This document shows positions 3,339 through 32,836 of a DNA stretch of 35,471 bases, one piece after another. Position 1 is the stretch's first letter. Every line of letters starts with the position of its first letter. The notes beneath the pieces are model-generated. The model did no database searches and was not told the DNA's origin. It saw nothing but the letters and a program-made list of their open reading frames with translations. A program made the translations under genes and the position numbers. The DNA comes from a virus, in UHGV virus genome UHGV-0047541; one strand, given 5' to 3'.

Positions 3339-4079
3339 TTAACTGTCGGTGACGGTGATTTCTGCAACCGCAGCAAGTTCACCATTACCGGATACGACCG
3401 GAATGTTGACCTTACCTGCAGCAACGCCGTTCACGGTGATGGTCATACCACTGACCGACACGGTGGCTTTTGTTTTATCCGCTGACACCGCACGGAAGCT
3501 CTTGTCGGTTGCGCCCTCCGGCTGGAATGCCACGGTCAGCGTGATGCTCTTCCCTTTCACCACCGAGGTGCTGGCAGGCGTCACGGTCATGCCGGTTGCC
3601 GCTGTTACCGTGCTGCGATCTTCAGCCATCGACGGACGGCCCACATTGGTGACCTTCACTGTGCGGGTGATCACTTCCTTCGCCGTCACCGCCTTACCGA
3701 TACTGCTGACCCAGCCACGGAACACATCGACCGTGCCGTTCGGGAAGCGGATTTTATAGGCACGGGTATCACCTTCATTAAACCACGCCAGCAGCGCCTG
3801 CTGACCCTGCTCTCCGGGCATCCACGCCAGCGTGAAGCTGGTATCTCCGGCGGATTTCTGCCCCTGCCCGGTCGCAGTCCAGTCTGCATCTTCATCATCG
3901 AGATAGCTGTCGTCATAGGACTCAGCGGTCAGTTCGCCGGGCGTCAGGTCTTTAACTTTTGCCAGACGCGACCAGTCAACGTCTGAAAGCGGATTCGCAT
4001 AAGGGTCACCGCTTCCCTTATAAACCCACAGGGTGGTCCCGGCACCTTTCACCGGCATTACAGGATTTGGTACAGGCAT
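3339..4079 (-). CDS. V: major tail tube protein V with C-terminal Ig-like (Big_2) domain
   Basis: ORF 3339-4109; the lambda V start [27 protein letters not shown] is the internal Met at 4079. Confidence 0.9.
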
Positions 4080-4086
4080 AGCGTCC

Positions 4087-4482
4087 TCACATTTCATAGG
4101 TAATGACATAAGTCAGATCGGCTGAACTCCACAGGCCCGCATCATCGTCGCGCCGGTAGTCATAGCCGCTGGCCACCATACTGGTGATCAAATCTGACAG
4201 TGCCGGGATATCGCTCATCACCGGATAAATCCGGGACTCCATCCACGCATCCAGCTCTGAATCCGGCACCTGAGCAGGCAGGAAAACTTCGATATGCAGC
4301 TCCGCCTGCCAGGTATCGCTGTCCAGCTCTTCGCCCGTGTATTCAGCGCCGGTGAGATAAACGGCAATTGCCGGAAAATCCGCCTCATCAAAAACAGCGG
4401 GGCGACCATCAAAAAGCGTCGCCCCGGTATCATGTTTCTCCAGTGCATCCAGTACGGCTGCACGGATATCAGTATGTTTCAT
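4087..4482 (-). CDS. U: tail tube terminator protein U
   Basis: 131 aa, [36 protein letters not shown]..., lambda gpU-like. Confidence 0.9.
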
Positions 4483-5057
4483 CGCTTTATTACCATCCTC
4501 AGTTGATGCTGCAGCGCATAGCCCAGCTCTTTCGGAAGACGTTCACGCCGTATCCGCTCAATATTTTGTTTAAACGCCGTGGTCAGCGGCACCGCCATCG
4601 GGATTTTCACCACATCAATGGGGTAACGGTTTTTTCCGGCCACACGCTGCATGACATGCCACCGGCCATTTTTCAGTTGCTGAATAAACGCGCCGGGAAT
4701 ACGACGGTTACCCACCACAAGCACGCTGCCGCCACCTTTCAGGGATGAACGCTGCCCCTTTTTACGACGCCTGCGGCGCGAAAGGACAACCCGCGCATTA
4801 CCCAGCTTGATTACGGGCAAATCCCCCCGGTTAACTTTGATTCTGGCCTGCGGATTTTTGACCGTGGCCCTTTTCAGCCTGGCCCTTTCCTTTACCAGTT
4901 TCCGGCGTACCTTTGTCTCACGGGCAACCTGTGACGCCGACTGCGATATCGCGGATGACGCAACGCGGTTAATGGCCATTGCGGCGGCACCAGGCACCGC
5001 CGTTTTGCTGATACGGCTGAGGTTTTCAACGGCCTGCTCAAGACCTTTTATGACCAT
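4479..5057 (-). CDS. Z: tail completion protein Z
   Basis: 192 aa, lambda gpZ-like; position between FII and U. Confidence 0.85.
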   Translation of the reverse strand: MVIKGLEQAVENLSRISKTAVPGAAAMAINRVASSAISQSASQVARETKVRRKLVKERARLKRATVKNPQARIKVNRGDLPVIKLGNARVVLSRRRRRKKGQRSSLKGGGSVLVVGNRRIPGAFIQQLKNGRWHVMQRVAGKNRYPIDVVKIPMAVPLTTAFKQNIERIRRERLPKELGYALQHQLRMVIKR

Positions 5058-5068
5058 ACATCCCCCTT

Positions 5069-5422
5069 TCAGCGGCGACGGTTAACGGCAGGCGGTACGC
5101 CCCGTCCAAGCCAGAGATGACAACTTCCGCCATCATCCGGCGAAACCCGGTCCACCCAGAAATTTTCCTCACCGATGGTCAGCGTGTCTCCACGCCGCAG
5201 CTGCCGCACCTCATCAGTCCGGACAAACAGGGACGGGCTGGAGCCTTCAACGCGCACGCCCTGTCCGGCATAGCTGATATTTTCAGGGTCATCAAAAACA
5301 CCACGTATCACCGCACCTGACTGCTCACCGGATGTCATGGTGGCTGACGTTCCCATGTACCCGCGTATCGTTTCATCGGCGCGGGCAATGGCAGCATCGA
5401 ACAGGTTATCGAAATCAGCCAC
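5069..5422 (-). CDS. FII: head-tail joining protein FII
   Basis: 117 aa, MADFDNLFDAAIARADETIRGYMGTSATMTSGEQSGAVIRGVFDDPENISYAGQGVRVEG..., near-identical to lambda FII. Confidence 0.9.
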   Translation of the reverse strand: MADFDNLFDAAIARADETIRGYMGTSATMTSGEQSGAVIRGVFDDPENISYAGQGVRVEGSSPSLFVRTDEVRQLRRGDTLTIGEENFWVDRVSPDDGGSCHLWLGRGVPPAVNRRR

Positions 5423-5433
5423 AGCGCCTCCCG

Positions 5434-5832
5434 TTATTGCATTCTGGCCAGGCCATGTTCTGTCATTTCGGCTGCCACACTGACAGAGACACGAAACGCC
5501 GTTCCCGGCAGTACAAAAGCCACAGGCTCATCCCGCGTGGCGTGAAGTGCATCAGTATGCAGCGTCACCAGTGCCACGACCGTGACCAGAGCAGCCGTAT
5601 CAGTCACGGTATCCGGCTGCGCTGATACCACCTCATTTTCATGCCCGGTCAGCACATTTTCCCGGCTGAGAGGGGTGTCCTGACCGGAAGTTTCATCCGT
5701 GTCATCAAGCTCCTCTTCCAGCTCTGCCACACGCTGTGCAATATCTGCCGCACTTCCTGACATATCAGGTTCACGTCCCAGCAACTCTGATAGTTCTTTC
5801 AGGCGTTTCAGATTCTCGTCTTTCTTTGCCAT
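5434..5832 (-). CDS. FI: DNA packaging protein FI
   Basis: 132 aa; C-terminal half (ELEEELDDTDETSGQDTPLSRENVLTGHENEV...HTDALHATRDEPVAFVLPGTAFRV) matches lambda FI. Confidence 0.85.
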   Translation of the reverse strand: MAKKDENLKRLKELSELLGREPDMSGSAADIAQRVAELEEELDDTDETSGQDTPLSRENVLTGHENEVVSAQPDTVTDTAALVTVVALVTLHTDALHATRDEPVAFVLPGTAFRVSVSVAAEMTEHGLARMQ

Positions 5833-5884
5833 ATCTGTTTCCGGTTGAATAAAAAAGGGGGTATATCACCCCCCCGGTTATATG

Positions 5885-6913
5885 TTATTTCACCTGTACC
5901 ACTACGAACTCATCCGGATCAGGGAGTACCATCAGCGGCGCGGACTGCGTCATGGTGAATTCACGGGCGGGATCACCCACTGTCATCCAGTGTTTCGGGT
6001 AACGGGAAGAAGCCACCACACCTTCCGACAACGCCTGCGCATCCTGAATGGCACCGTAACAACGGATCCCATCTGCAGCAGTATTCCCCAGGACCAGCGT
6101 GCCATCTGGCAGATAACGTTTTTCGGTACCATCCTCTGATACATAAGACGTTTTCGCCACCACAATGGCCAGATCGCCGTAATACCCCTTGAAGGACACC
6201 ACTGCGCCCAGATCTTTCACTGCCGTTTCGAGTTGTGAATTTGAACCGCGACGGGTATCCAGTTTTTCGCGAAACAGCTTAAAACCATTCAGCAGACGCC
6301 AGACGGTACCGTCCATGATGGCAATATTCACAAGACCGCTGGCCTGGTCGCAGTAGAGGTCAATATCATGTGTAGGATCGAACGTGTCACGATCCTGTTT
6401 TGACCATTCCTTACCGCTACCCTGTGTGATGTTATTCTTCGTCGACCTGCCAAAATCGACCTCAATTTTCTCGAACTGGTCTCCTTCCATGGTGTATTTG
6501 CCATACAACACAGCATTTACCGCCTGCATTTCTTCCACCTGGACAATCGCGTGCTCTTCCTGTTTGAGGTTATCGGTAATGATACGCAGACGGCGGTAAG
6601 CCGGATCGTTCAGTTGAGATGGATCTTCACCAGGAAGGCGCTCAACCGCCTGCTGGTAATTAAATTCGTGTTTCGGCTTGACGTAGCCCGGACGCAACAC
6701 GCGGGTTTCACCACCACGATGACGCAGCACTTTTCCTTCAACAACCGGGGAGACATAGGCCGCCACCGGCGTTTTTCCGGTAATTTTGTCCAGCATCACC
6801 TCTTCGGTCTGGAAATTCACCGTACGGCGGAAAAACAGCTCCAGAAACAGCGCACGAAATTTAACTTTTTGTTCGGTATAACCGAGCAACTGGCGGGTCG
6901 TAAACAATCCCAT
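5885..6913 (-). CDS. E: major capsid protein E
   Basis: 342 aa, lambda gpE-like (PGYVKPKHE, KEWSK, DTRRGSNS, TVGDPAREFTM, SAPLM motifs). Confidence 0.9.
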   Translation of the reverse strand: MGLFTTRQLLGYTEQKVKFRALFLELFFRRTVNFQTEEVMLDKITGKTPVAAYVSPVVEGKVLRHRGGETRVLRPGYVKPKHEFNYQQAVERLPGEDPSQLNDPAYRRLRIITDNLKQEEHAIVQVEEMQAVNAVLYGKYTMEGDQFEKIEVDFGRSTKNNITQGSGKEWSKQDRDTFDPTHDIDLYCDQASGLVNIAIMDGTVWRLLNGFKLFREKLDTRRGSNSQLETAVKDLGAVVSFKGYYGDLAIVVAKTSYVSEDGTEKRYLPDGTLVLGNTAADGIRCYGAIQDAQALSEGVVASSRYPKHWMTVGDPAREFTMTQSAPLMVLPDPDEFVVVQVK

Positions 6914-6969
6914 AAATCAGTTCCTTCATTCAGAAATAAGTCAGGCCACCGCAGTGGCCTGATAATGTG

Positions 6970-7317
6970 TTACGGCAGCGCCGCATGACTCAGGGCACTG
7001 CCGGAAAAGGCGTTGGCCTTTTTGTGTTCATCCACACTCTCAGGCCAGTGAATTGCCTCCGTCGCAAAAGTCCCCGACTTGTAATACGTCAGTACCGTCT
7101 CTGTGCCTTCAAGCGGCAGTACCAGTATGCCAACCGCACCACCGGCTTTCTGTCCGTCCCAGACCACCAGTTTCCCGGTGGCCTCATCCAGCATCAGAGG
7201 CGTCAGAGCCGGTGTCGCCGAGGAAATCCCGCTGCTACCTGTGGCTGTATGAGCCGGATCATTACCGGAAAAAATACGTACTTCCGCACGCTGTTAAGTG
7301 ATGGTTTTCGTTACCAT
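6970..7317 (-). pseudogene. D: head decoration protein D homolog interrupted by an in-frame TAA at codon 8; an N-terminally truncated 74-aa product could start at 7194
   Basis: Minus strand from ATG 7317: M V T K T I T TAA(7296-7294) Q R A E V R I F S G N D P A H T A T ... continuing in the same frame into the lambda D-like body (SGNDPAHTAT, KSGTF). Confidence 0.6.
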
Positions 7318-7353
7318 ATTATTAAAACCTCATATTGATGATCAGCAGTGGCT

Positions 7354-8859
7354 TTATGGCATGGCCATGAGCATTTTTACGTCCGCATCACCGTCTGCTG
7401 ACGTTTGTGACATGCCGCCCTGCACCGCTGCCGGTGAATGGTTCGCCATGAAACGTTCAAACATGGATGTCGTGGAGGCAGAGACTGGTTCAGCTTTACC
7501 TGATGCAGCAGCCAGTACAGCCCGGGCATTCTCCACGGACATCCCCGGGCAGGCCGCCAGTTTTTCAGCCTGCGCCTCAGCCCCTTTCGCCTCATCCAGG
7601 GCCATGATTTGATCACGGAGTGATAGTCCGGCATCCGCCCGTGGTGAAGCAGCCAGGATCGGGCGGGCTTTTTCCACTGTCATATCCGGCATCGCCGCCA
7701 GCGTTGCAGCCAGTTGTTCACGACCTTTCGCTTCTTCACACGCCATAATGCGATCGGCTTCACTCAGCGGGGATGCCTCCGGCTGCTGCGGTGCCGCCGC
7801 TGCCAGAATCGCCCGGGCCTGCTCAACGCTCATTCCCTGTTGTCCTGCCAGCATCGAGGCAAGCTGTTCACGTCCTTTCGCTTCCTGGCATGTCAGGATC
7901 CCCATCACTCGCTGGTTCTCCTGCGCGACGGCTTCCGTTGCAGTTAATTGCGGCATAGTGCCTCCTGTATCATGTGTGTTCAGCGTCGCGGCCATCACGC
8001 TGATGGCATCCGACGCATTGATTAATTCATCCGCCAGCCCGGCCTCAATACCTGACTGCCCTTCAAAAACAGCGGCCTCTGTCCCCATAACCGTATCCAC
8101 AGATAAACCGGTATACATCGCCACTTTTTCAGCAAACATCCGGCGCGCCGCATCAATGCGCTGCTGCATGTCCTGGCGAACCTCTGACGGCAGGGATTCA
8201 AACTGATTGCCATCCACCTTGTGCGATCCGGCGTAAATAAGCGTGATATCAACACCGGCCTGCGCCAGATGACCGGCATAGCTGACATGGCTCATCATCA
8301 CACCAATGGAGCCGATACGTGATGTCTGGGTAATCAGCCGTCGGGAACAGGCCGATGCCAGCAGCATTGCGGCAGAACAGGCCGTGTCATTGCACAGCGC
8401 CCAGACAGGCTTCTGCTGCCGGAGGCGGTAAATCATGTCAGCGCAGTCAAACGCGCCGGCGGCCTGCCCACCAGGGCTGTCAATATCCAGCAGTACACCC
8501 CGCACCTGGGTATCCGACATTGCCTGCTGAAGACAGGCGACAATGCCGTCATAACCTGTCATTCCGGAAAATGGCCGCATCCCCCCCAGCCGGTGCACCA
8601 GCGTGCCTGTCACCGGCAGTACAGCAATACCATTCACCACCCTGTAAACACGGGCCGGTCGTTTTCCTCCGGCCATGTACTCGTCCGTTTCAGCCAGCAT
8701 CCCGGGAGCATCAAGCTGTACCTGCTGTTGCGGTACCGAAAGACTTGTCGCACCCATCTCACGCCCCAGCGCGCAAAAGAAAACCCGCGCATAGGCGGGC
8801 TCCAGAAGCAGCGGTTCATTGAATGCTGCTGCAATAATGTGTGAAAGATTACGTCTCAC
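7354..8859 (-). CDS. C: capsid assembly protease C with nested scaffold (Nu3-like) C-terminal region
   Basis: 501 aa; N-terminal and S49-peptidase-like core similar to lambda gpC; C-terminal three-fold repeat of EAKGREQLA...GMSVEQARAILAAA-type motif. Confidence 0.85.
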   Translation of the reverse strand: MRRNLSHIIAAAFNEPLLLEPAYARVFFCALGREMGATSLSVPQQQVQLDAPGMLAETDEYMAGGKRPARVYRVVNGIAVLPVTGTLVHRLGGMRPFSGMTGYDGIVACLQQAMSDTQVRGVLLDIDSPGGQAAGAFDCADMIYRLRQQKPVWALCNDTACSAAMLLASACSRRLITQTSRIGSIGVMMSHVSYAGHLAQAGVDITLIYAGSHKVDGNQFESLPSEVRQDMQQRIDAARRMFAEKVAMYTGLSVDTVMGTEAAVFEGQSGIEAGLADELINASDAISVMAATLNTHDTGGTMPQLTATEAVAQENQRVMGILTCQEAKGREQLASMLAGQQGMSVEQARAILAAAAPQQPEASPLSEADRIMACEEAKGREQLAATLAAMPDMTVEKARPILAASPRADAGLSLRDQIMALDEAKGAEAQAEKLAACPGMSVENARAVLAAASGKAEPVSASTTSMFERFMANHSPAAVQGGMSQTSADGDADVKMLMAMP

Positions 8860-10441
8860 GTGGTGTTGTCTCCTCTTCCGGCCTGCGACTCTCCGCTATC
8901 TGCTGCTGATACGCCTGCGCTATCCACACCGGGCGTGAGAGCCCGGCTTTTTCCCGCTCTGCAGATTCCCTGACCTGCTGGCGGAAAATGTCCTGATAAT
9001 CCTCACCCATCAGCGCCAGCTCTTTCTCATACGTGCTCAGTCCGGCCTCAATGCGCATCACCGACTCCTGAACCTCCTTGAGTCCATCAATGGCCATTCT
9101 TCCGGAGCCAATCCACTCTGCCCGTGACCAGGCTGAACGCGCCTGATAAAAATCAAAACGCGCCCGTGGCGGACGAATAATCCCCCGAAGAAGCGCCTCT
9201 TCCAGCCAGCAGGAAAACATCTGCGTGGCCAGCCGGGACGCAATAAATTTTCGTCGCCCCATAAAATAACGCCACGACTCATTGGCTGAGGCACGGGCAC
9301 TTGAGTAACTGACCTTCGAGTAATCACGGGACAACTGTTCGTAGGAAACACCAAGACCGGCGGCGATATACCGCAGCAGCGCCTGTTCAAGCGCAGAAAA
9401 TCCATTATCTGAATCCTGCGCAGTCTGCAGTTTCAAATCATCCCCGGGGAAAAGGTGCGGAATTTTGACACCGCCCAGCGTCACGTTATTCGTGTCATAC
9501 CAGCGGGTGAACTTCTCCAGAATATTAATGAGCGGATTATCCTGCTGACTCTGCGGTGCACCCGCGATATATTCAAAGGCCTTTTCGGTATCGAGTTCAC
9601 TTTCAATCGTCGCTGCATACATCGCCTTCACTATGGCCGACTGAAGCTGCGTGGTCTGCAGGGAATCGAGCATTTTCAGCCGTTCCATGACGCTGTAAAA
9701 CTGATTAGCCCCACGGGTCTGCCCGTCCTCAACCGGCTCGAAAATATGCAGCATGGCCGGACGCCCGGTGGGAAGTTCACGCGGGATCCGTTCCCATCGT
9801 CCACGACCAGAGAACGGAAAATCATCCTCACAGATATGGTACGCAACGGCCCGTCCATACCGATCGACTTCCACCCCGGCCCGCAGGAAACGGTTACCCA
9901 TACCGTGTCCCGGCGTGTCCACCCGTTTAGGGCTCACGGCTTTAAAACGCGTGCGGAATAACCGTGTGGTTTCCGTATCCCAGACCGGCTGCACAAAGAT
10001 TTCACCGTTAAATGCATGAACGCCCACACCTTCACGGATAAATTCCGTAAAGGTGCGTTTCCCTTCCACATCGATCTCGCCAAACATTCCTTCCGCGTAT
10101 TCCGACCAGGCCGCCTCCACCTCATCGACAAAGATTTTTGCCGCGGACTCCCGCATCCCAAGCCAGCGCCAGTTCGGACGGTAACTAATAAGAAACATGT
10201 GCCCGACAATGTGATCCTTATGCAGGGCCACCGCATTGGCCGCTATACCGTTATTGCGTACCAGATCATCTGCACGGGCATTCCCCAGACGCAACGCAGG
10301 CAGCAGGGCAGCATCAACACCCTGCGCCGGTGGTAACCACTCGGCCATTTGCCCGCCAAATCCTGCGCCGCCCCCGTTGTAGCTGAGACTCTCACGAAGC
10401 GGAACGCCGTTCACATCAATCAGGACTGGCGTTCGTTTCAT
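8849..10441 (-). CDS. B: portal protein B
   Basis: 530 aa, lambda gpB-like length, position and sequence. Confidence 0.9.
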   Translation of the reverse strand: MKRTPVLIDVNGVPLRESLSYNGGGAGFGGQMAEWLPPAQGVDAALLPALRLGNARADDLVRNNGIAANAVALHKDHIVGHMFLISYRPNWRWLGMRESAAKIFVDEVEAAWSEYAEGMFGEIDVEGKRTFTEFIREGVGVHAFNGEIFVQPVWDTETTRLFRTRFKAVSPKRVDTPGHGMGNRFLRAGVEVDRYGRAVAYHICEDDFPFSGRGRWERIPRELPTGRPAMLHIFEPVEDGQTRGANQFYSVMERLKMLDSLQTTQLQSAIVKAMYAATIESELDTEKAFEYIAGAPQSQQDNPLINILEKFTRWYDTNNVTLGGVKIPHLFPGDDLKLQTAQDSDNGFSALEQALLRYIAAGLGVSYEQLSRDYSKVSYSSARASANESWRYFMGRRKFIASRLATQMFSCWLEEALLRGIIRPPRARFDFYQARSAWSRAEWIGSGRMAIDGLKEVQESVMRIEAGLSTYEKELALMGEDYQDIFRQQVRESAEREKAGLSRPVWIAQAYQQQIAESRRPEEETTPRET

Positions 10442-10641
10442 AACCTCACTCCCAGCGGGCGACGGCGGCGGGTTGTCCCCAGTACCGACTCCGCATCATT
10501 GATAGCACGATTAAGCTCATCCAGAGAGGCTGCCGTATATTCAATTCTGCGACCATCTTTCTGGACCGACACCACCCGTTTACCGGTTAATAAATCAAGA
10601 CGCGCCTGACGCAGCGCCTGCAGTTCAGCGACTGTTACCAT
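10438..10641 (-). CDS. W: head-tail joining protein W
   Basis: 67 aa, ...LLTGKRVVSVQKDGRRIEYTAASLDEL..., lambda gpW-like. Confidence 0.85.
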   Translation of the reverse strand: MVTVAELQALRQARLDLLTGKRVVSVQKDGRRIEYTAASLDELNRAINDAESVLGTTRRRRPLGVRL

Positions 10642-12553
10642 TCACTCCTCCGGACAGCTTCGCTGCCAGTTCTTCAAGGGTTGGCCGGGTCGTCTCTTCT
10701 TCCCGGGATTTTGCCAGTACAGCCAGATCAAGCTGCCAGCGTTGCACGGACACACGTAATGCTGCGTAGGCATACACCAGGCAGTCCAGCGCTTCGTTAC
10801 GCCGCTTTTTGTTATCCCACAGCAGGCGCATCTTTCCTTTTTCCCACTTCTCCACAAGCTCTTCCGCGACCAGTTGCTGCGCCTCTGTCTGCGAAAAAAT
10901 CTCCGGATTATCAGGAAAACGGATGGCATACGATGTGGCTTCATCTGCAGGTGTGGGACTGGCTTTCATACGGGCATAGAGAATTTCTTTTGCGGTGTCC
11001 GTCCCCACTTCACACAGATACAAGCCCCGCTGATTGCGGGTTTTCGGCATGGTGATCACCGGCTTGCCATAGACAGACGCACCTTTTACCGGTAGCACAC
11101 GGAAAACACCGTGTTTTTTTGACCTCTGGTAAACGATTTCGCCATCGATCCCCCCGGTGTCCCAGCAGACACGGGAAATAGTCATTTCGGTGCCATCCGC
11201 ATGGCGGTATTTTTTGTTAATCACCGCGTCCACACGTAACAGCGTCTCTTCCTCATCAGGACGCCCCATAATGATGATTTTATCCACCAGAAAAGCTTCC
11301 TCTCCCGGTGCCCATCCCCAGACATACATCTCAAAACGGTTTCGCTGCGAGTCAATGCCCGCCGTCAGATAAACCACCCGGTCAGGTACCGCCGCCGTGT
11401 AATGCACGACCTTATCCATCAGAACCTGGTGATCGAGTTTTTCGCCCACGGCCTCTTCCCAGGTCTCGCCCAGCGTGGTGTTCACAAAGGTTTTCAGGCC
11501 GTTGGGATCTTTCAGCGCATCCAGCCAGTCATAGACTATCTGTACCCAGGTGGTAAACGGGCTATAGGCCGTCCAGATGTGGAAAGTGATGGATCGCGGT
11601 GGCGGCATCTCCTCATCACCCGCGCTGTAAAATGTCAGGCCGTCACGTGTCCACATGCCCGTGTTTTCACAGATCCACCGCCCGTTATTCTGTTCAAGCT
11701 CAGACTGATGGATCACACAGCCATGATGCTCACAAAGGTAGAAAACACTTTCTGGCTTATTCTTCTCCCACTTAAGACCGAAAAGCGAGGCATCATCGCC
11801 AAATTTCAGATACTGCTCCTCCCCACAGTGCGGACAGGGCACATAAAAACGCATGAAATGTGCCGACTCGTTAGCGGCTTTTTCGATCTGGCAGGAGCCT
11901 TTGATTTTAGGCGTCGAGCCGCGAATGGATTTTGGCCATACAGAGCCCTCAATACGCTTATCCCCCAGCAGGGTTGGCGAGCCCTCTTTTTCGACATCCG
12001 GCTCGAACGAGGAAAGTTCGTCATAGCAGACCACGTCCACGGATTTTTCACGGTAGTTTTTGGCGGCAGCGCCGCCCAGGCACCAGAAGCCCACACCCGA
12101 TGAAAAGCGTTTCAGCGTGAGAGTATTGTCACGATGTTTACGACCCAGCCATGGGGAAAGGTCTTTCAGGCATGGCACGTCCCGAATCGTCGCCTCCACG
12201 TGAGACTTCATAAAATCTTCAGCGGCAGAATCCGTGGGCTGAAAAAGCAGACTGTTTCGGGATTTATGCTCAATAAAATATCCGACCACCCCCAGCAACA
12301 TCTTTGTATAGCCAACACGGGCAGATTTAATCAGATTAACAGTGCGGATCTGATCATTCCCCATGCTGTTCATGATGGCGATCTGGAATGGCAGCGTTTT
12401 CCATTCTCCCTCACCATATGAAGATTCTTTCGGCAGATAATAATTTTGATCAGCCCATTCAACTGGCGTCACCGGCAATGCCCTTATCAGGGGCTGTAAT
12501 GCTGTTGTGACAGCGCTCATCATATTATTCAGTTGTTGCTCTGATATATTCAT
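10625..12553 (-). CDS. A: terminase large subunit A
   Basis: ORF 10625-12610; probable start is the internal MNISEQQL (12553), matching lambda A MNISNSQ; rest highly similar to lambda gpA. Confidence 0.9.
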   Translation of the reverse strand: MNISEQQLNNMMSAVTTALQPLIRALPVTPVEWADQNYYLPKESSYGEGEWKTLPFQIAIMNSMGNDQIRTVNLIKSARVGYTKMLLGVVGYFIEHKSRNSLLFQPTDSAAEDFMKSHVEATIRDVPCLKDLSPWLGRKHRDNTLTLKRFSSGVGFWCLGGAAAKNYREKSVDVVCYDELSSFEPDVEKEGSPTLLGDKRIEGSVWPKSIRGSTPKIKGSCQIEKAANESAHFMRFYVPCPHCGEEQYLKFGDDASLFGLKWEKNKPESVFYLCEHHGCVIHQSELEQNNGRWICENTGMWTRDGLTFYSAGDEEMPPPRSITFHIWTAYSPFTTWVQIVYDWLDALKDPNGLKTFVNTTLGETWEEAVGEKLDHQVLMDKVVHYTAAVPDRVVYLTAGIDSQRNRFEMYVWGWAPGEEAFLVDKIIIMGRPDEEETLLRVDAVINKKYRHADGTEMTISRVCWDTGGIDGEIVYQRSKKHGVFRVLPVKGASVYGKPVITMPKTRNQRGLYLCEVGTDTAKEILYARMKASPTPADEATSYAIRFPDNPEIFSQTEAQQLVAEELVEKWEKGKMRLLWDNKKRRNEALDCLVYAYAALRVSVQRWQLDLAVLAKSREEETTRPTLEELAAKLSGGVNGNSR

Positions 12554-13034
12554 CGAGTAAATCCGGTAATTTATCCCCCGCCCGCGCACACTGATTTGCC
12601 CCCTTCGCAATAAGGGTTTTCAGATGGTCAAGATGGCGCGGTGTTAAATCAGGAAACTGTCGCTGCATGGATAAAGGGATGGAATCAAGCGTACTGGATA
12701 ACGCCATTGCCAGCTTACTGAGGGCAAAAATACAGAACCCGGTGTCAATAAGTTTTCCTTTTGACACCTCATTTTTTAACTGCTGTGTAACAGCCTGTTC
12801 TGCTGTCAGTTCCCATCTGGCAATAAGCAATTTCTCCTCATAGTCGTCTTCGCTATCGCCACCAGGCACATCGTTTTTACTTCTCCTCAGATACGATATG
12901 TAAAAATCGCGCCAGGCATCCAGATCCAGTTGCCCTCGCTTATTCGATATCGGGGCACCCGGCAATTTCTGCAATCTGCGAAGCTGGCGATCGGTCAGAC
13001 TTAAATGCCTGGCAACTTCAGTCTGCGTAGCCAC
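12525..13034 (-). CDS. Nu1: terminase small subunit (Nu1-like C-terminal region, divergent N-terminal DNA-binding region)
   Basis: 169 aa; C-terminal FCIFALSKLAMALSSTLDSIPLSMQRQFPDLTPRHLDHLK resembles lambda Nu1; N-terminus differs; stop overlaps A start; about 185 bp from cosN. Confidence 0.8.
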   Translation of the reverse strand: MATQTEVARHLSLTDRQLRRLQKLPGAPISNKRGQLDLDAWRDFYISYLRRSKNDVPGGDSEDDYEEKLLIARWELTAEQAVTQQLKNEVSKGKLIDTGFCIFALSKLAMALSSTLDSIPLSMQRQFPDLTPRHLDHLKTLIAKGANQCARAGDKLPDLLDEYIRATTE

Positions 13035-16855: not shown

Positions 16856-17251
16856 CTAACCTCGCATGTCAAAGCCAGATTTCTGAAAATCTCTGTAGAC
16901 TTCCGGATTGTTGAAGGCCGGAAATTTGGCTTTATGAGCTGCGGACTTTATCGCTTCGCAATAGGCTTTATCACCGTTACTGGTAGATATTTTTAAAGCC
17001 GTGCCATCCTGAGAGAATTCCATATGCAACCTGCATTTTTTCCCTTTCCAGTTATGTGGCTCATCAAGTTTGGCATTAATTGCAGCTCTGATTCCCCGCG
17101 CTTGCGCCCCCCATTCATCCTGATCATCCCAGCGTCCTGAACTGCAACTACCTGTAGCAGTAGTTTTGTGGCAATCTGAAGGGTGTAAAGGTGTGCATCC
17201 CGCAACAAAGCCGACCCAAAAAGTCAGCATAACGATTTTCTTTAATCCCAC
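16856..17251 (-). CDS. lipoprotein with TolA C-terminal domain III-like fold (divergent paralog)
   Basis: 131 aa; signal peptide plus lipobox VAGC; C-terminal KKCRLHMEFSQDGTALKIS...AYCEAIKSAAHKAKFPAFNNPEVYRDFQ aligns with TolA domain III (two conserved Cys, P..EVY..F). Confidence 0.7.
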   Translation of the reverse strand: MGLKKIVMLTFWVGFVAGCTPLHPSDCHKTTATGSCSSGRWDDQDEWGAQARGIRAAINAKLDEPHNWKGKKCRLHMEFSQDGTALKISTSNGDKAYCEAIKSAAHKAKFPAFNNPEVYRDFQKSGFDMRG

Positions 17252-17372
17252 TTCTTGCTCCCCAATCCATTAAAATCTCAGCAATAGTAGTTGTTACGTC
17301 CGCCACTGGCTCAGTGCCGTAGTTGTGTCAGAACAAACCTAAGCCGAAATCTTTATTACAAAACAATAAATA

Positions 17373-17801
17373 TCAGGGTTTAAAATCCAGCACCCCATTT
17401 TGAAATACTTTATATACTTCCGGCGAAGGGGGGGCAGGTATATCAGCATTCTTTATCGCATTCATCGCTTCACGACATAAATTGGGGTCTCCACTTTCTC
17501 TTTTAACCTCCAGTAGAAGGCCATTCGGGGCCATATGCATTCTAAGCGTACACTCTTTTCCTGAATACTTACTCGCATCCCCGAACTGTTTTTCGATGGC
17601 GTTCTTGATTTGATGGGCATACTGACGGATATCTTCACTAACATCAGTAGTACGTTCAGATGAACTCACATACTGTGTTTCTGTTGATTTATCGGAGTAA
17701 TATGATGCCCGGTCGTAATAATTTGTCGATACAGCATCAGTGCACCCGATAATAATCCCACTAATAATCAACGTAAGAATTGATGCGCTACGAAAACCCA
17801 T
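17373..17801 (-). CDS. lipoprotein with TolA C-terminal domain III homology
   Basis: 142 aa; lipobox IIGC; C-terminal IKNAIEKQFGDASKYSGKECTLRMHMAPNGLLLEVKRESGDPNLCREAMNAIKNADIPAPPSPEVYKVFQNGVLDFKP closely parallels recalled E. coli TolA C-terminus (...IKSAIESKF..AGKTCTLRIKLAPDGMLLDIKPEGGDPALCQAA...PKPPSQAVYEVFKNAPLDFKP). Confidence 0.8.
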   Translation of the reverse strand: MGFRSASILTLIISGIIIGCTDAVSTNYYDRASYYSDKSTETQYVSSSERTTDVSEDIRQYAHQIKNAIEKQFGDASKYSGKECTLRMHMAPNGLLLEVKRESGDPNLCREAMNAIKNADIPAPPSPEVYKVFQNGVLDFKP

Positions 17802-17880
17802 TTTTCCTCACAATATGTCATATAGTAATGGATTATATATACCGTCGTTTTGGACGCTCAAACAGCGAATCAGATCAAAT
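17802..17880 (-). promoter_or_regulatory. putative sigma70 promoter and RBS for lipoprotein gene
   Basis: Minus strand reads TTGAGC-(18 bp)-TATAAT about 25 bp upstream of GAGGAAAA-ATG. Confidence 0.35.
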
Positions 17881-18780
17881 AAAACGCACATTTGTTAACA
17901 TTTACACAAAGTCTGCGTGGGATATTCTGAAAGAATATCCATAATGTGGAGAGAATCTATTGAAGTGCATGGTGCCGGGTGCCTCCCGGTGAACAAAACG
18001 TTCGTGATACCTGTCGGCGACAGAAAAGGTTAATGGTATCACCCCACCGCACAGGGGGATTCACCATGCAGGAGTTTTCTTAGCAAACTCTCTGCGCGCC
18101 CGGCAATTCCCAACCACATAAAATGCGGAGTTTGTAGCATTTATGCATATAACTCGCAGGAATTATCTTAAAAAACTGATGTCGATCCGGATTAAAAAGA
18201 AGCAGGTCATCATCAGATGACTGGAAAAAAGGAAAACAAAAAATACTCATCGTACAGTTTTGATTGCAGGGATGAGCCTGCTATGCACAATATACAGAAT
18301 ATAAGCAAGATAAAAATATGCAGGCATATTATTTCGGATTTTGTTATTAACACAACCTTTTTAATAATCATTTGGCATACAATAAACCAGCCCAAAAAGA
18401 ACCGCCTAAACAGGCGGTTGGTCAATACAAAGGATGCTTCGTCTTTATTATAGTAATCTGAGGCGTCGGCCCCCCCGAAGTATTCCGCACTGCATGGATA
18501 CTGTGGTTTCCCGCTAAATCACTATGTAAACCACCCTCGCACTGAGGAACATCTTTTTAGTGTTATTTACAACACCGGGATAATGCATCATCGGCCCTGC
18601 CAGGAAATACAAAATCTCCACCGATAATGCACCATTCTGCTGCCGTAAAAAGATCAGCACTGAGGCTACACCCGGCCTCAAATAATAGCCAGAGAACAGA
18701 ATGCTTTTTCAAAACAACCAGCTCCCACGTAGTAAAAAAATACGCCAGTGCCGCAATACAATAAGGCTTGTTTCAAATGC

Positions 18781-18936: not shown

Positions 18937-19013
18937 TGGACCGCCACCGGAGACTCGAACCTCGCACACTCAACTTAAAGGGTTGATGCTCTTCCCTGAT
19001 GAGCTAGTGGCGG
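18937..19013 (-). tRNA. atypical tRNA-like gene (anticodon loop CCUUUAA, putative UUU/Lys, C at position 33; possible pseudo-tRNA)
   Basis: 77 nt with 7-bp acceptor stem CCGCCAC/GTGGCGG, D and anticodon stems, TTCGAGT T-loop, encoded CCA; non-canonical C33 and T-stem mismatch. Confidence 0.5.
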
Positions 19014-19663: not shown

Positions 19664-20746
19664 ATGAAAAAATTAACAGTGGCAATTTCTGCTGTAGCTG
19701 CATCAGTACTGATGGCGATGTCTGCTCAGGCAGCTGAAATTTATAATAAAGACAGTAACAAGCTGGATCTGTACGGGAAAGTTAATGCTAAGCACTACTT
19801 CTCCTCTAATGATGCAGATGATGGCGATAAGACCTATGCCCGTCTTGGCTTCAAAGGTGAAACCCAAATCAACGATCAACTGACTGGTTTCGGTCAGTGG
19901 GAATATGAATTCAAAGGCAACCGCGCTGAATCTCAAGGTTCCTCCAAAGATAAAACCCGTCTTGCCTTCGCTGGCCTGAAATTCGGTGACTACGGCTCCA
20001 TCGATTATGGCCGTAACTACGGTGTAGCATACGATATTGGTGCATGGACCGACGTTCTGCCAGAATTCGGTGGCGATACCTGGACCCAAACAGATGTATT
20101 CATGACTGGTCGCACCACAGGTGTTGCAACATACCGTAACAAAGACTTCTTTGGCCTGGTAGATGGTCTGAACTTTGCTGCTCAGTATCAGGGTAAAAAT
20201 GACCGCACTGACGTAACTCAAGCTAATGGTGATGGTTTCGGTTTCTCCACTACTTATGAGTATGAAGGATTCGGCGTAGGTGCAACCTATGCTAAATCTG
20301 ACCGCACTAATAATCAGGTTATCTACGGTAACAACAGCCTGAATGCATCTGGTCAAAATGCTGAAGTATGGGCAGCTGGTCTGAAATATGATGCGAACAA
20401 CATCTATCTGGCTACTACCTATTCTGAAACCCAAAACATGACTGTTTTTGGTAAAAACCATATTGCCAACAAAGCACAAAACTTCGAAGTAGTTGCACAA
20501 TATCAGTTCGACTTCGGTCTGCGTCCGTCCGTTGCTTATCTACAATCTAAAGGAAAAGACTTGGGTGCTTGGGGTGATCAGGACCTGGTTGAATATATTG
20601 ATGTAGGTGCAACCTATTACTTCAACAAAAATATGTCCACTTTTGTTGACTACAAAATCAACCTGATTGATAAGAGCGATTTCACGAAAGTATCTGGCGT
20701 TGCTACCGATGATATCGTTGCTGTAGGTATGGTTTACCAGTTCTAA
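19664..20746 (+). CDS. OmpC/OmpF-family general porin (NmpC/Lc-like lysogenic-conversion porin)
   Basis: 360 aa, signal peptide [39 protein letters not shown]..., C-terminal MVYQF; AT-rich upstream region. Confidence 0.9.
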
Positions 20747-22335: not shown

Positions 22336-22851
22336 TCACAGCACAATCTGTTTCAGTTTCTGTACCGCTTTCCCCATATCCGCCATAGCATCAACAAACT
22401 CATCAAATTTACGACTTGCCATTCCATACGCCTGGAGGATTTCCAGTTTCAGAGGATCCAGTTGCTTTTTAATTTCCGCACGATCATTAAATTTCTTCTC
22501 TGCTTCTTCCGCAGCCCTGATCAGCTCCTCAGCATGCCTGCGTAATTCATCCGGAGTAACGGTCTTTTTAATCACAACGGGTTCCTCTGTTTTTACTGGT
22601 ATTTCACTATTTACTGCCTGATGTCCAAATTTAGGATGATGTAACGTTGTAGTTCTTCCATCATTCGCAACGACCAGAAGTCCACTGTCGCGGATAATGC
22701 CAATGAGTATCTCCTTATCCCTTTTATTCAGCAGACTGTACGCCTGCACTTTCTGTGATATCTGGGTCAGTGTTGCGCCTTCCGGCATTCGTTCAACAAA
22801 ACGTTTAACCCTGGATAAAACTGGCTGCAGATGGGGTGGTGTAATTCTCAT
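22336..22851 (-). CDS. hypothetical protein
   Basis: 171-aa ORF in operon context; no confident family. Confidence 0.5.
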   Translation of the reverse strand: MRITPPHLQPVLSRVKRFVERMPEGATLTQISQKVQAYSLLNKRDKEILIGIIRDSGLLVVANDGRTTTLHHPKFGHQAVNSEIPVKTEEPVVIKKTVTPDELRRHAEELIRAAEEAEKKFNDRAEIKKQLDPLKLEILQAYGMASRKFDEFVDAMADMGKAVQKLKQIVL

Positions 22852-26367: not shown

Positions 26368-26588
26368 GCTGCACCTCCGAGATGCTTCATGTTTTTTCCG
26401 GAGCGAAAGGCTATAAGCGGCATACTGACGCGGTAATTACGACCCAGCGGTTCACAAATCACCTTCTGACATTCACGGTCCACCAGGCTAACACGTAGAA
26501 CATGCCCTGCAGACGTGGTGTACCACTGACCGGGGCGAGGACAACGGAAAGTCTGATTGGTAAATCGTTTGAAAATATTCCGGATCAT
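26364..26588 (-). CDS. hypothetical small protein
   Basis: 74-aa ORF with overlapping start/stop coupling. Confidence 0.4.
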   Translation of the reverse strand: MIRNIFKRFTNQTFRCPRPGQWYTTSAGHVLRVSLVDRECQKVICEPLGRNYRVSMPLIAFRSGKNMKHLGGAA

Positions 26589-27736
26589 TTGCGCCCCCTT
26601 ACCTCTGAAGAGTTCAGCGACGAATGAATAAGACGGGCAAGAAATGCCGCATCGTTAATTCGGTCATACAGACTTACAGCCAGCGGTGATTCAGCTTTTT
26701 CCAGCATGGGATAAAGCTGCTGCAACCAGACCTGATGAATTGATGAAATGTAGGAATAGAGAACGCTGGCGTTATGTGCAACGTCGCTCGGTACAGAGGG
26801 CTTTGAAAGCTGTTTCTCCATCTGGTTAAAGGCATTGATGTATGCCTCTTTGAACTGGGCAGCACGTTTACCCGTGAAACCCATAGCAAGAAACGCAAAA
26901 CCGTCGCGTGTGATTTGGTAGCAAGGAAGTTTGCGACCTGTGCAATCAGTGTAATCACTCACCGAAAAATTGCGGGCAGTGAATGATGCTGAGCATTCAA
27001 GCGTGCGGATCTTTTTCAGTACATCGTCATGACGTTTAGAGAAGAAGTCAGCAACAGCCAAAGAAGATGTAACAGCCTGACCATCAACGATGGCAATTTC
27101 AGGTTGAGAGATGGTTGGGAGAGTAGTCATGGTGACAGCCCCGGTAGTCAGTTTTTTAGAAAACTCACCACATGGGACGCCAATCACAGAGGTGGTGAGA
27201 CGTACAGGGTTGGCGTTACCGGAGACTACCGAACCCGGCCCGACCGAAGTCGGCCCTGTACGCCCCACCATAATTTGGGCGTAGCAATGCTCATGACACG
27301 AAAAAACCGCATGAGCGCGGTTATGCTCAGTAATCAATTTCAGGACGCCAATCCCGGCACCCGCTTTATAAGGTGCCTGAACAGTGTAACGTCCCGGAAT
27401 GGCAGAATCAATGTGCTGGTGGTCCTTCACACTCAACAAAATCACGCCTGAATTTCCACAAAGGACTAAAGCACTCATGCGGGTAGTCTTTGCGAAGATA
27501 GATAACGCGCTGTGTTTCTGGCTCCCAACGAATAACATGGACATAAAGCCCTCTTCCGTCACGAAACCAGCGGTTAAGTTCCTGCACAACTCGCCCCCCA
27601 CAGTCAGGTAAAGTTCTCTGTGGTTACTTACAGCCAGGTGATTTGGTAATCTGCATTCATGCCGTAACAACAGGTGTTCAGCGACGCTGACCACCTGCTG
27701 TTGCGACAAACGGTTATTTGCCGTTAAACTGTTCAT
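26585..27736 (-). CDS. Rha-domain regulatory protein with about 200-aa N-terminal extension of unknown function
   Basis: 383 aa; residues about 205-300 IAIVDGQAVTSSLAVADFFSKRHDDVLKKIRTLE...YQITRDGFAFLAMGFTGKRAAQFKEAYINAFNQME are Rha-like; N-terminal 200 aa open in the same frame. Confidence 0.6.
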   Translation of the reverse strand: MNSLTANNRLSQQQVVSVAEHLLLRHECRLPNHLAVSNHRELYLTVGGELCRNLTAGFVTEEGFMSMLFVGSQKHSALSIFAKTTRMSALVLCGNSGVILLSVKDHQHIDSAIPGRYTVQAPYKAGAGIGVLKLITEHNRAHAVFSCHEHCYAQIMVGRTGPTSVGPGSVVSGNANPVRLTTSVIGVPCGEFSKKLTTGAVTMTTLPTISQPEIAIVDGQAVTSSLAVADFFSKRHDDVLKKIRTLECSASFTARNFSVSDYTDCTGRKLPCYQITRDGFAFLAMGFTGKRAAQFKEAYINAFNQMEKQLSKPSVPSDVAHNASVLYSYISSIHQVWLQQLYPMLEKAESPLAVSLYDRINDAAFLARLIHSSLNSSEVRGRK

Positions 27737-31430: not shown

Positions 31431-31967
31431 ATGTCATTTATTAAAACTTTTTCCGGGAAGCATTTTTATTATGACAGGATAAATAAAGACAACATCGATA
31501 TTAACGATATCGCGGTTTCCCTTTCAAATATCTGTCGCTTTGCCGGTCATCTTTCACACTTCTACAGCGTCGCCCAACATGCGGTGCTTTGCAGCCAGCT
31601 GGTGCCGCAGGAATTTGCTTTTGAAGCGTTAATGCATGATGCAACAGAAGCGTATTGCCAGGACATCCCCGCGCCACTGAAACGCCTTCTTCCTGACTAT
31701 AAACGGCTGGAAGAAAAAATAGACGCCGTAATCCGTGAGAAATACGGGTTACCCCCGGTTATGAGTACGCCCGTGAAATATGCCGATCTCATCATGCTGG
31801 CAACCGAACGCCGCGATCTCGGGCTTGATGATGGCTCTTTCTGGCCTGTACTGGAAGGCATCCCGGCAACAGAGATGTTCAACGTGATTCCACTGGCACC
31901 GGGCCATGCCTACGGGATGTTTATGGAACGCTTCAACGAGTTATCGGAATTACGCAAATGTGCATAA
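31431..31967 (+). CDS. yfdR: HD-domain 5-prime-deoxynucleotidase YfdR-like (178 aa)
   Basis: Start MSFIKTF at 31431 with GGAGA RBS; HD-domain residues (H...HD: SVAQHAV, ALMHDATEAY). Confidence 0.65.
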   Translation: MSFIKTFSGKHFYYDRINKDNIDINDIAVSLSNICRFAGHLSHFYSVAQHAVLCSQLVPQEFAFEALMHDATEAYCQDIPAPLKRLLPDYKRLEEKIDAVIREKYGLPPVMSTPVKYADLIMLATERRDLGLDDGSFWPVLEGIPATEMFNVIPLAPGHAYGMFMERFNELSELRKCA

Positions 31968-32836
31968 CTCATGTAGTTAGTTTTTCTGGCGGGAGAACAT
32001 CTGCATATCTTGTTCACCTGATGGAAGAACAAAGAAAGGCTGGCAATAACGTCTGCTACATCTTTATGGATACCGGTTGCGAACATCCGCTGACATACCG
32101 CTTTATTCGGGAGGTTGTGAAGTTCTGGGGCATACCGCTAACTGTGTTGCAGGTCGATATAAATCCAGAGCTTGGGCAGCCAAATGGTTATACGGAATGG
32201 GAACCACAGGATATTCAGACACGAATGCCGGTGCTTAAACCGTTTATGGACATGGTAAAAAAATATGGCACGCCATACATCGGCGGCGCGTTCTGCACTG
32301 ACAGATTAAAACTCACCCCCTTCACAAAATACTGCGATGACCATTTCGGACGAGGGAATTACATCACATGGCTGGGTATTCGTGCAGACGAACCTCGTAG
32401 GCTGAAACCGAAATCGGGCGTCCGGTATCTTGCCGAGCTATCTGATTTTGATAAGTCGGATGTTATCCGGTGGTGGCATAAACAACCTTTTGATTTGCAA
32501 ATCCCGGAGCACCTCGGGAACTGTGTTTTCTGCATCAAAAAGTCCACGCAAAAGCTGGGGCTTGCATGTAAAGACGAACCTGGTCTGATGCGAGTTTTTA
32601 ATGAGCTGGTTACAGGTAAACACGTCCGGGATGGTCACCGAAAGACAAATAAAGACGTTATGTACCGTGGTCATCTGAGCCTTGACGGGATTGCCAGAAT
32701 GTATGCCGACAGCGACTACAGAAATTTGTATCAGGCGATGGTGCAAGCCAGGCGATTCGATACCGGCTCGTGTTCAGAGTCATGTGAAATCTGGGGTGAT
32801 CAATTGGAATTGAAATTCGAAGAGGTGGTGGCATGA
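31958..32836 (+). CDS. phosphoadenosine-phosphosulfate reductase family (PP-loop ATP pyrophosphatase) protein
   Basis: 292 aa; N-terminal VVSFSGGRTSAYL PP-loop (SGGxxS) motif; Cys-rich C-terminus. Confidence 0.65.
   Translation: MCITHVVSFSGGRTSAYLVHLMEEQRKAGNNVCYIFMDTGCEHPLTYRFIREVVKFWGIPLTVLQVDINPELGQPNGYTEWEPQDIQTRMPVLKPFMDMVKKYGTPYIGGAFCTDRLKLTPFTKYCDDHFGRGNYITWLGIRADEPRRLKPKSGVRYLAELSDFDKSDVIRWWHKQPFDLQIPEHLGNCVFCIKKSTQKLGLACKDEPGLMRVFNELVTGKHVRDGHRKTNKDVMYRGHLSLDGIARMYADSDYRNLYQAMVQARRFDTGSCSESCEIWGDQLELKFEEVVA

Follow-up and report, generated by a model that had tools for sequence, protein, structure and literature searches.

An ochre codon at position 8 of the head decoration gene in a lambdoid prophage of Escherichia coli

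[quoted passage not shown] The shp sequence type is about 49% identical to gpD, and gpD is required during the packaging of the final 10-20% of the genome (PMC7602432). The expected phenotype of a loss of this protein is supplied by the lambda D mutants, in which near-full-length genomes are not stably packaged and shortened ones are viable (PMC12656833, PMC7602432); D-null lambda is viable only with a shortened genome, of 79.5% in the example given (PMC12656833). In the account of PMC5701804, which cites Lander et al. 2008, gpD contacts two gpE subunits through a strand made of its 14 N-terminal residues, which joins the E-loop of the first and the N-arm of the second; gpD without these 14 residues showed very poor complementation (PMC12656833).

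The head decoration gene and the rest of the prophage

The window, that is the whole 35,471-nt stretch of DNA analysed here (UHGV-0047541), carries a homolog of shp and lambda D at 6970..7317 on the minus strand, where 115 codons plus stop are broken by an internal stop. The minus-strand frame reads ATG (7317) GTA ACG AAA ACC ATC ACT, followed by TAA at codon 8 (7294..7296, minus strand, derived base 7296), and then continues with CAG CGT in the same frame to the stop at 6972-6970. The codon listing thus bore out exactly the in-frame ochre and the coordinates that the original prediction had described from the sequence. The whole output of the native start is now the 7-codon remnant frame MVTKTIT (7297..7317, minus strand), preceded by a GAGG Shine-Dalgarno sequence (7328..7331, minus strand) that is the same in the intact relatives and reads AGGAGG in phage 21. 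The product reported by the gene caller is a 74-aa remnant ORF from Met42 (6970..7194, minus strand), without a Shine-Dalgarno sequence and without the N-terminal 41 residues.

When Glu was restored at codon 8, the 115-aa product aligned over its full length with phage 21 SHP (PDB 1TD3; 110 of 115 residues identical, 96%, E = 8.6e-70) and also matched lambda gpD (E = 7e-29 to about 1e-28). The repaired 115-aa sequence scored 82.6 bits against Pfam PF02924 (HDPD), the curated cut-off of which is 29.1 bits, and its 96% identity to the crystallised SHP makes a trimeric beta-tulip fold a prediction that is certain enough. The homologs do not start downstream of the stop, which the original prediction had named as a finding that would speak against it: the phage 21 record has a ribosome-binding site and a 115-aa CDS annotated at the same ATG, the PGAP annotation of the relatives gives 115-aa proteins, and the crystallised recombinant SHP chain covers residues 1-115. 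With TAA at codon 8, the ORF does not encode the full protein including the N-terminal capsid-binding arm, and the D gene is, as judged from its sequence, a pseudogene of the gpD/SHP family rather than a functional member.

The D gene sits between the protease/scaffold gene (C/Nu3) and the capsid gene E, as in lambda and phage 21. Its upstream neighbour codes for an intact C-type S49 protease/scaffold protein of 501 aa (7354..8859, minus strand) and its downstream neighbour for an intact major capsid protein E homolog of 342 aa (5885..6913, minus strand); with the portal gene (8849-10441, minus strand) the head module has the order portal, C, D, E. No match was obtained near the D gene in an Rfam scan. 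When about 50 annotated proteins of three relatives were searched against the window by tblastn, all but D had matches that were full-length and free of stops, in agreement with the original statement that the neighbouring morphogenesis genes are intact. These matches covered the tape measure, T, G, V, U, Z, FII, FI, E, C, portal, W and both terminase subunits, as well as the lysis, Q, replication/regulation, repressor, cro-like, recombination and early genes. The E, portal and W proteins were 100% identical to those of the intact prophage of strain M8 (NZ_CP019953), and the comparison with this prophage revealed no compensatory change in capsid protein E, the binding partner of the lost protein.

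Past the left end of the window, intact M, L, K and I genes and the start of J are present in L007, one of the contigs sharing the stop (see below). A second lesion in tail gene K, which is called 150 nt short in L007, was considered and rejected, as the frame is open and the difference is one of start-site choice. The right end of the window corresponds to the prophage boundary that adjoins zur in related genomes; the product of one right-end gene occurs in 1178 blocks of the collection, and the prophage family is located at the zur/dusA locus. The left end of the prophage lies outside the window; from the 35.5 kb of the window, the tail-tip genes in L007 and the integrase required at the far end, we infer a prophage genome of at least about 41-43 kb, which corresponds to 85-89% of lambda and is near the length of phage 21 (42.9 kb).

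Several other features of the window are recorded here in their own right. Two ORFs in tandem, of 131 and 142 aa and each with a TolA C-terminal domain, lie between the lysis cassette and the tRNA cluster, and an STnc100 sRNA match (87 bits) comes after them (16856-18099, minus strand). An intact 360-aa OmpC-like porin is encoded on the opposite strand (19664-20746, plus strand), with the gene for the Q antiterminator on one side and the tRNA/lysis region on the other; its identity to an annotated ompC of a related prophage is 92%, and it is likely a lysogenic-conversion cargo gene. An extra 171-aa ORF (22336-22851, minus strand) was found between the DUF968 and KilA-N genes; the corresponding junction of the two related prophages compared has no such ORF, and neither Pfam nor PADLOC gave a match for it. 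At 27188-27376 (minus strand), inside a 383-aa Rha/Ash-like ORF (26585-27736), Rfam gave back-to-back matches to C4 antisense RNA (82 bits) and to the sRNA isrK (59 bits), which suggests that the early region has an antirepressor module of the P1/Gifsy type under antisense control. Finally, an early gene of the PAPS-reductase family (31958-32836, plus strand) matched PADLOC SspD (E = 1.4e-15) and, more weakly, BrxP and DndC, hinting at a possible role in DNA modification or defence.

Origin and distribution of the stop codon

Codon 8 was GAA in all four homologs aligned (the M8, IGC_EcoliInv and M19 prophages and phage 21), which makes GAA (Glu8) the ancestral codon and the derived change at 7296 a G>T on the coding strand (C>A on the plus strand). 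Among 5426 complete E. coli genomes, the five that matched most closely all came from mouse-gut isolates, including M8 and IGC_EcoliInv/Res, and these five differed from the window by a single mismatch in 521 nt, the base that turns GAA into TAA. Over the head block (5519-13000, about 7.5 kb) the window and the intact M8/IGC-type prophages differed at three sites only, namely 7296, 7834 and 11023. Site 7834, in the C-type protease/scaffold gene, is synonymous and leaves no amino-acid difference from the M8 prophage. Site 11023 corresponds to V511L in TerL and is polymorphic within the TAA lineage, with Leu in the window and in contigs L007, L008 and L012, a different base in L009, L011 and L013, and Val in the intact M8 prophage.

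The stop was absent from diverged homologs, TAA being confined to copies that are at least 99.78% identical. A megablast search with a 61-mer found only GAA versions of this sequence context in the 5426 complete E. coli genomes, exact-pattern scans with a 35-mer for the TAA allele gave zero matches in representative genomes (GTDB), IMG/VR and JGI metagenomes, and no TAA copy was seen in another prophage backbone or in any viral collection. The empty pattern scans first suggested a singleton or an error, an interpretation that was overturned by a look-up of the 74-aa product. The exact truncated product was indexed in 31 blocks of the collection, 24 of which were read and yielded 24 contigs, and a cluster look-up returned 27 contigs with NCBI, Logan and ENA as sources. 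In ten out of ten contigs fetched (L007-L016; 99.78-100% identical to the window) the TAA was identical. Their source runs belong to several projects (ERR118219, ERR2221113, ERR12828329/-472/-496/-516, SRR18275625, SRR22464934/-967 and ENA ERZ13657893).

By point changes and recombination patches the ten TAA contigs split into at least five haplotypes: L007, L008 and L010 have a common SNP cluster at 4938-5318, L014 has SNP patches at 3414-3429 and 4467-4566, and L015 differs from the window at 6014. The patches (3414-5318; L007, L008, L010 and L014) fall in the FII-Z-U tail-joining genes. Of the four combinations of patch type and 11023 allele that are possible, three were present among the TAA copies, which points to recombination after the stop arose. 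This pattern indicates short gene-conversion tracts, apparently from other lambdoid prophage alleles and postdating the nonsense mutation, and by the same comparison the TAA allele is old enough to have gathered a few substitutions and gene-conversion tracts. We consider it very probable that a single G>T transversion converted Glu8 to an ochre codon and that this recent, heritable knock-out is the sole disabling lesion in the window. Early decay of the prophage, one of the explanations put forward in the original prediction, is supported, since the stop is a derived and inherited change and the prophage is intact in all other respects.

Expected consequences for the particle and possible routes of rescue

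Translation from the native start would end after seven residues, and nothing downstream would be expected to restore useful amounts of functional protein. By analogy with D-null lambda, excision, replication, prohead assembly and cell lysis would still take place on induction; the heads, once expanded, would be without the trimers that staple the capsomers at the three-fold sites, near-full-length genomes would not package stably, and the infectious titre would collapse unless the protein comes in trans. Taken together, the lambda gpD data, the length of the prophage and the absence or N-terminal truncation of SHP lead to the expectation that the prophage alone should fail to make stable, infectious full heads. 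In the searchable papers we found no experimental evidence that phage 21-type phages need SHP as strictly as lambda needs gpD.

The prophage may be transmissible without a decoration protein of its own, either by borrowing SHP or through a tolerance of phage 21-type heads for its loss at this genome length, but we regard this as unlikely. Were it the case, the ochre allele would represent a circulating helper-dependent phage variant and no dead end. In the first of these forms, a prophage that is defective alone would still be transmitted with SHP given in trans by a co-resident lambdoid prophage; defective-prophage pools of E. coli O157 are an example of such helper dependence, under which the ochre allele could persist and even spread horizontally. 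Potential donors are frequent, shp-type genes being present in 1865 of the 5426 complete E. coli genomes in up to five copies, and the SNP patches in FII-Z-U (at 3414-3429 and 4497-5318) resemble alleles of other prophages, so that related prophage DNA was within reach. Co-assembly of SHP and gpD on a heterologous capsid, according to work cited in PMC7602432, would make supply in trans mechanistically easy. Against this, the window itself holds no second copy of D or shp, the TAA allele was not found in another prophage backbone or viral collection, and all copies are at least 99.78% identical, which fits plain vertical descent. Helper dependence of this kind thus appears improbable.

Rescue by read-through of the stop, to which the original prediction had also pointed, is far less plausible. 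It would require that a host ochre suppressor, or near-cognate reading aided by the prophage tRNA-Lys(UUU), decodes the TAA often enough to provide sufficient full-length SHP. In its favour, the stop is followed at +4 by C, which makes for comparatively weak termination, and one of the prophage tRNAs is a tRNA-Lys(UUU) with an atypical C33; UAA is a near-cognate codon for Lys-tRNA. However, both release factors recognise UAA, no other stop leaks less in E. coli (read-through is typically at most 0.1%), and SHP is required stoichiometrically, at about 400 copies per head. None of the four tRNAs of the window (anticodons CAU, UUU, UGU and UCC) is a suppressor with a UUA anticodon. The stop is found in one near-clonal lineage, is missing from all diverged homologs, which have GAA, and is thus not a conserved recoding site. 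The C33/UUU tRNA family, moreover, is present in hundreds of genomes, as well as in phages that have no relation to the allele.

The tRNA-Lys(UUU) gene lies at 18937-19013 (minus strand) and has C at the normally invariant U33, giving the anticodon loop CCUUUAA; a sister gene at the same position in the related IGC prophage encodes tRNA-Arg(UCU) with the loop CUUCUAA, and the tRNA-Lys descends from a tRNA-Arg(UCU) lineage of prophages. The CCUUUAA loop is common to a family of prophage tRNA-Lys genes, relatives of which (80-99% identity) were present in 742 complete E. coli genomes and also in the sequenced phages PPompW and Stx2a, and the copy in the window has three private changes, one of them in the T-stem. 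A role of this tRNA as a suppressor specific to the ochre allele was rejected, given how widespread the odd loop is in the prophage tRNA family.

It is similarly doubtful in the extreme that re-initiation downstream of the stop yields a shortened functional decoration protein, either from ATT15 (minus 14 residues) or from Met42 (74 aa). As had been noted earlier, there is no in-frame ATG, GTG or TTG between codon 8 and Met42 (7194), and the codon listing and ORF list also confirmed the 74-aa length of the product; only the weak candidates ATT15, ATT31, CTG38 and CTG41 are present. The 74-aa ORF still scored 59.8 bits on PF02924, and a weak Shine-Dalgarno-like GGAAG precedes ATT15 (-4.2 kcal/mol for the duplex with the anti-Shine-Dalgarno sequence). 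ATT, however, is a very poor initiator codon. Met42 has no Shine-Dalgarno sequence (-1.7 kcal/mol, versus -6.3 kcal/mol for the native start), and its product would be devoid of the 41 N-terminal residues, which comprise the capsid-binding arm and part of the fold core, so that the truncated D envisaged in the original prediction is unlikely to be functional. In lambda gpD the first 14 residues are the capsid-binding strand described above, and complementation without them is very poor (PMC5701804, PMC12656833).

That the TAA is a sequencing or assembly error of a single record, as might be supposed from the absence of the allele from the 5426 complete E. coli genomes, the GTDB representatives, IMG/VR and the JGI metagenomes, can be dismissed, since ten separately assembled contigs from unrelated runs have the same base on at least five haplotypes.

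Comparison with known systems

To our knowledge, this ochre allele of shp has not been reported previously. Intactness predictors that use length or gene content would probably call the prophage intact; with an essential head-stabilising gene knocked out, it ought to be tested before it is listed among active phages. Being a natural mutant with a single lesion, it could serve to gauge the dependence of phage 21-type capsids on SHP and to put a date on the first step of decay of a prophage in a wild E. coli lineage, although it reveals no new mechanism.

The locus agrees with shp of phage 21 in its 115 codons, its start codon context and its place between the C-type gene and the capsid gene, and differs from it by the stop at codon 8 and by five conservative substitutions elsewhere. 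With lambda gpD and the laboratory nonsense mutants of D, such as lambda Dam15, it shares the PF02924 domain, the genomic position and the type of lesion. Unlike Dam15, a laboratory amber mutant, it carries an ochre of natural origin, the prophage is resident in wild E. coli, and no suppressor host is implied. The intact sisters, the M8 prophage and the Rac-locus hybrid prophage of IGC_EcoliInv_1.1 (NZ_CP054665), have a virtually identical head block, in which codon 8 is GAA and a 115-aa head decoration protein is annotated; their early and lysis regions, tail genes and integration sites are unlike those of the window. The prophage further resembles point-mutated defective lambdoid prophages of E. 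coli, which have one lesion in a morphogenesis gene, are otherwise complete and are inherited with the chromosome; compared with those cases of decay, it represents a specific allele very early in the process, the 35 kb being free of any further lesion. The best reading of the ochre codon is accordingly that of an ordinary first step of prophage decay and not of a recoding device.
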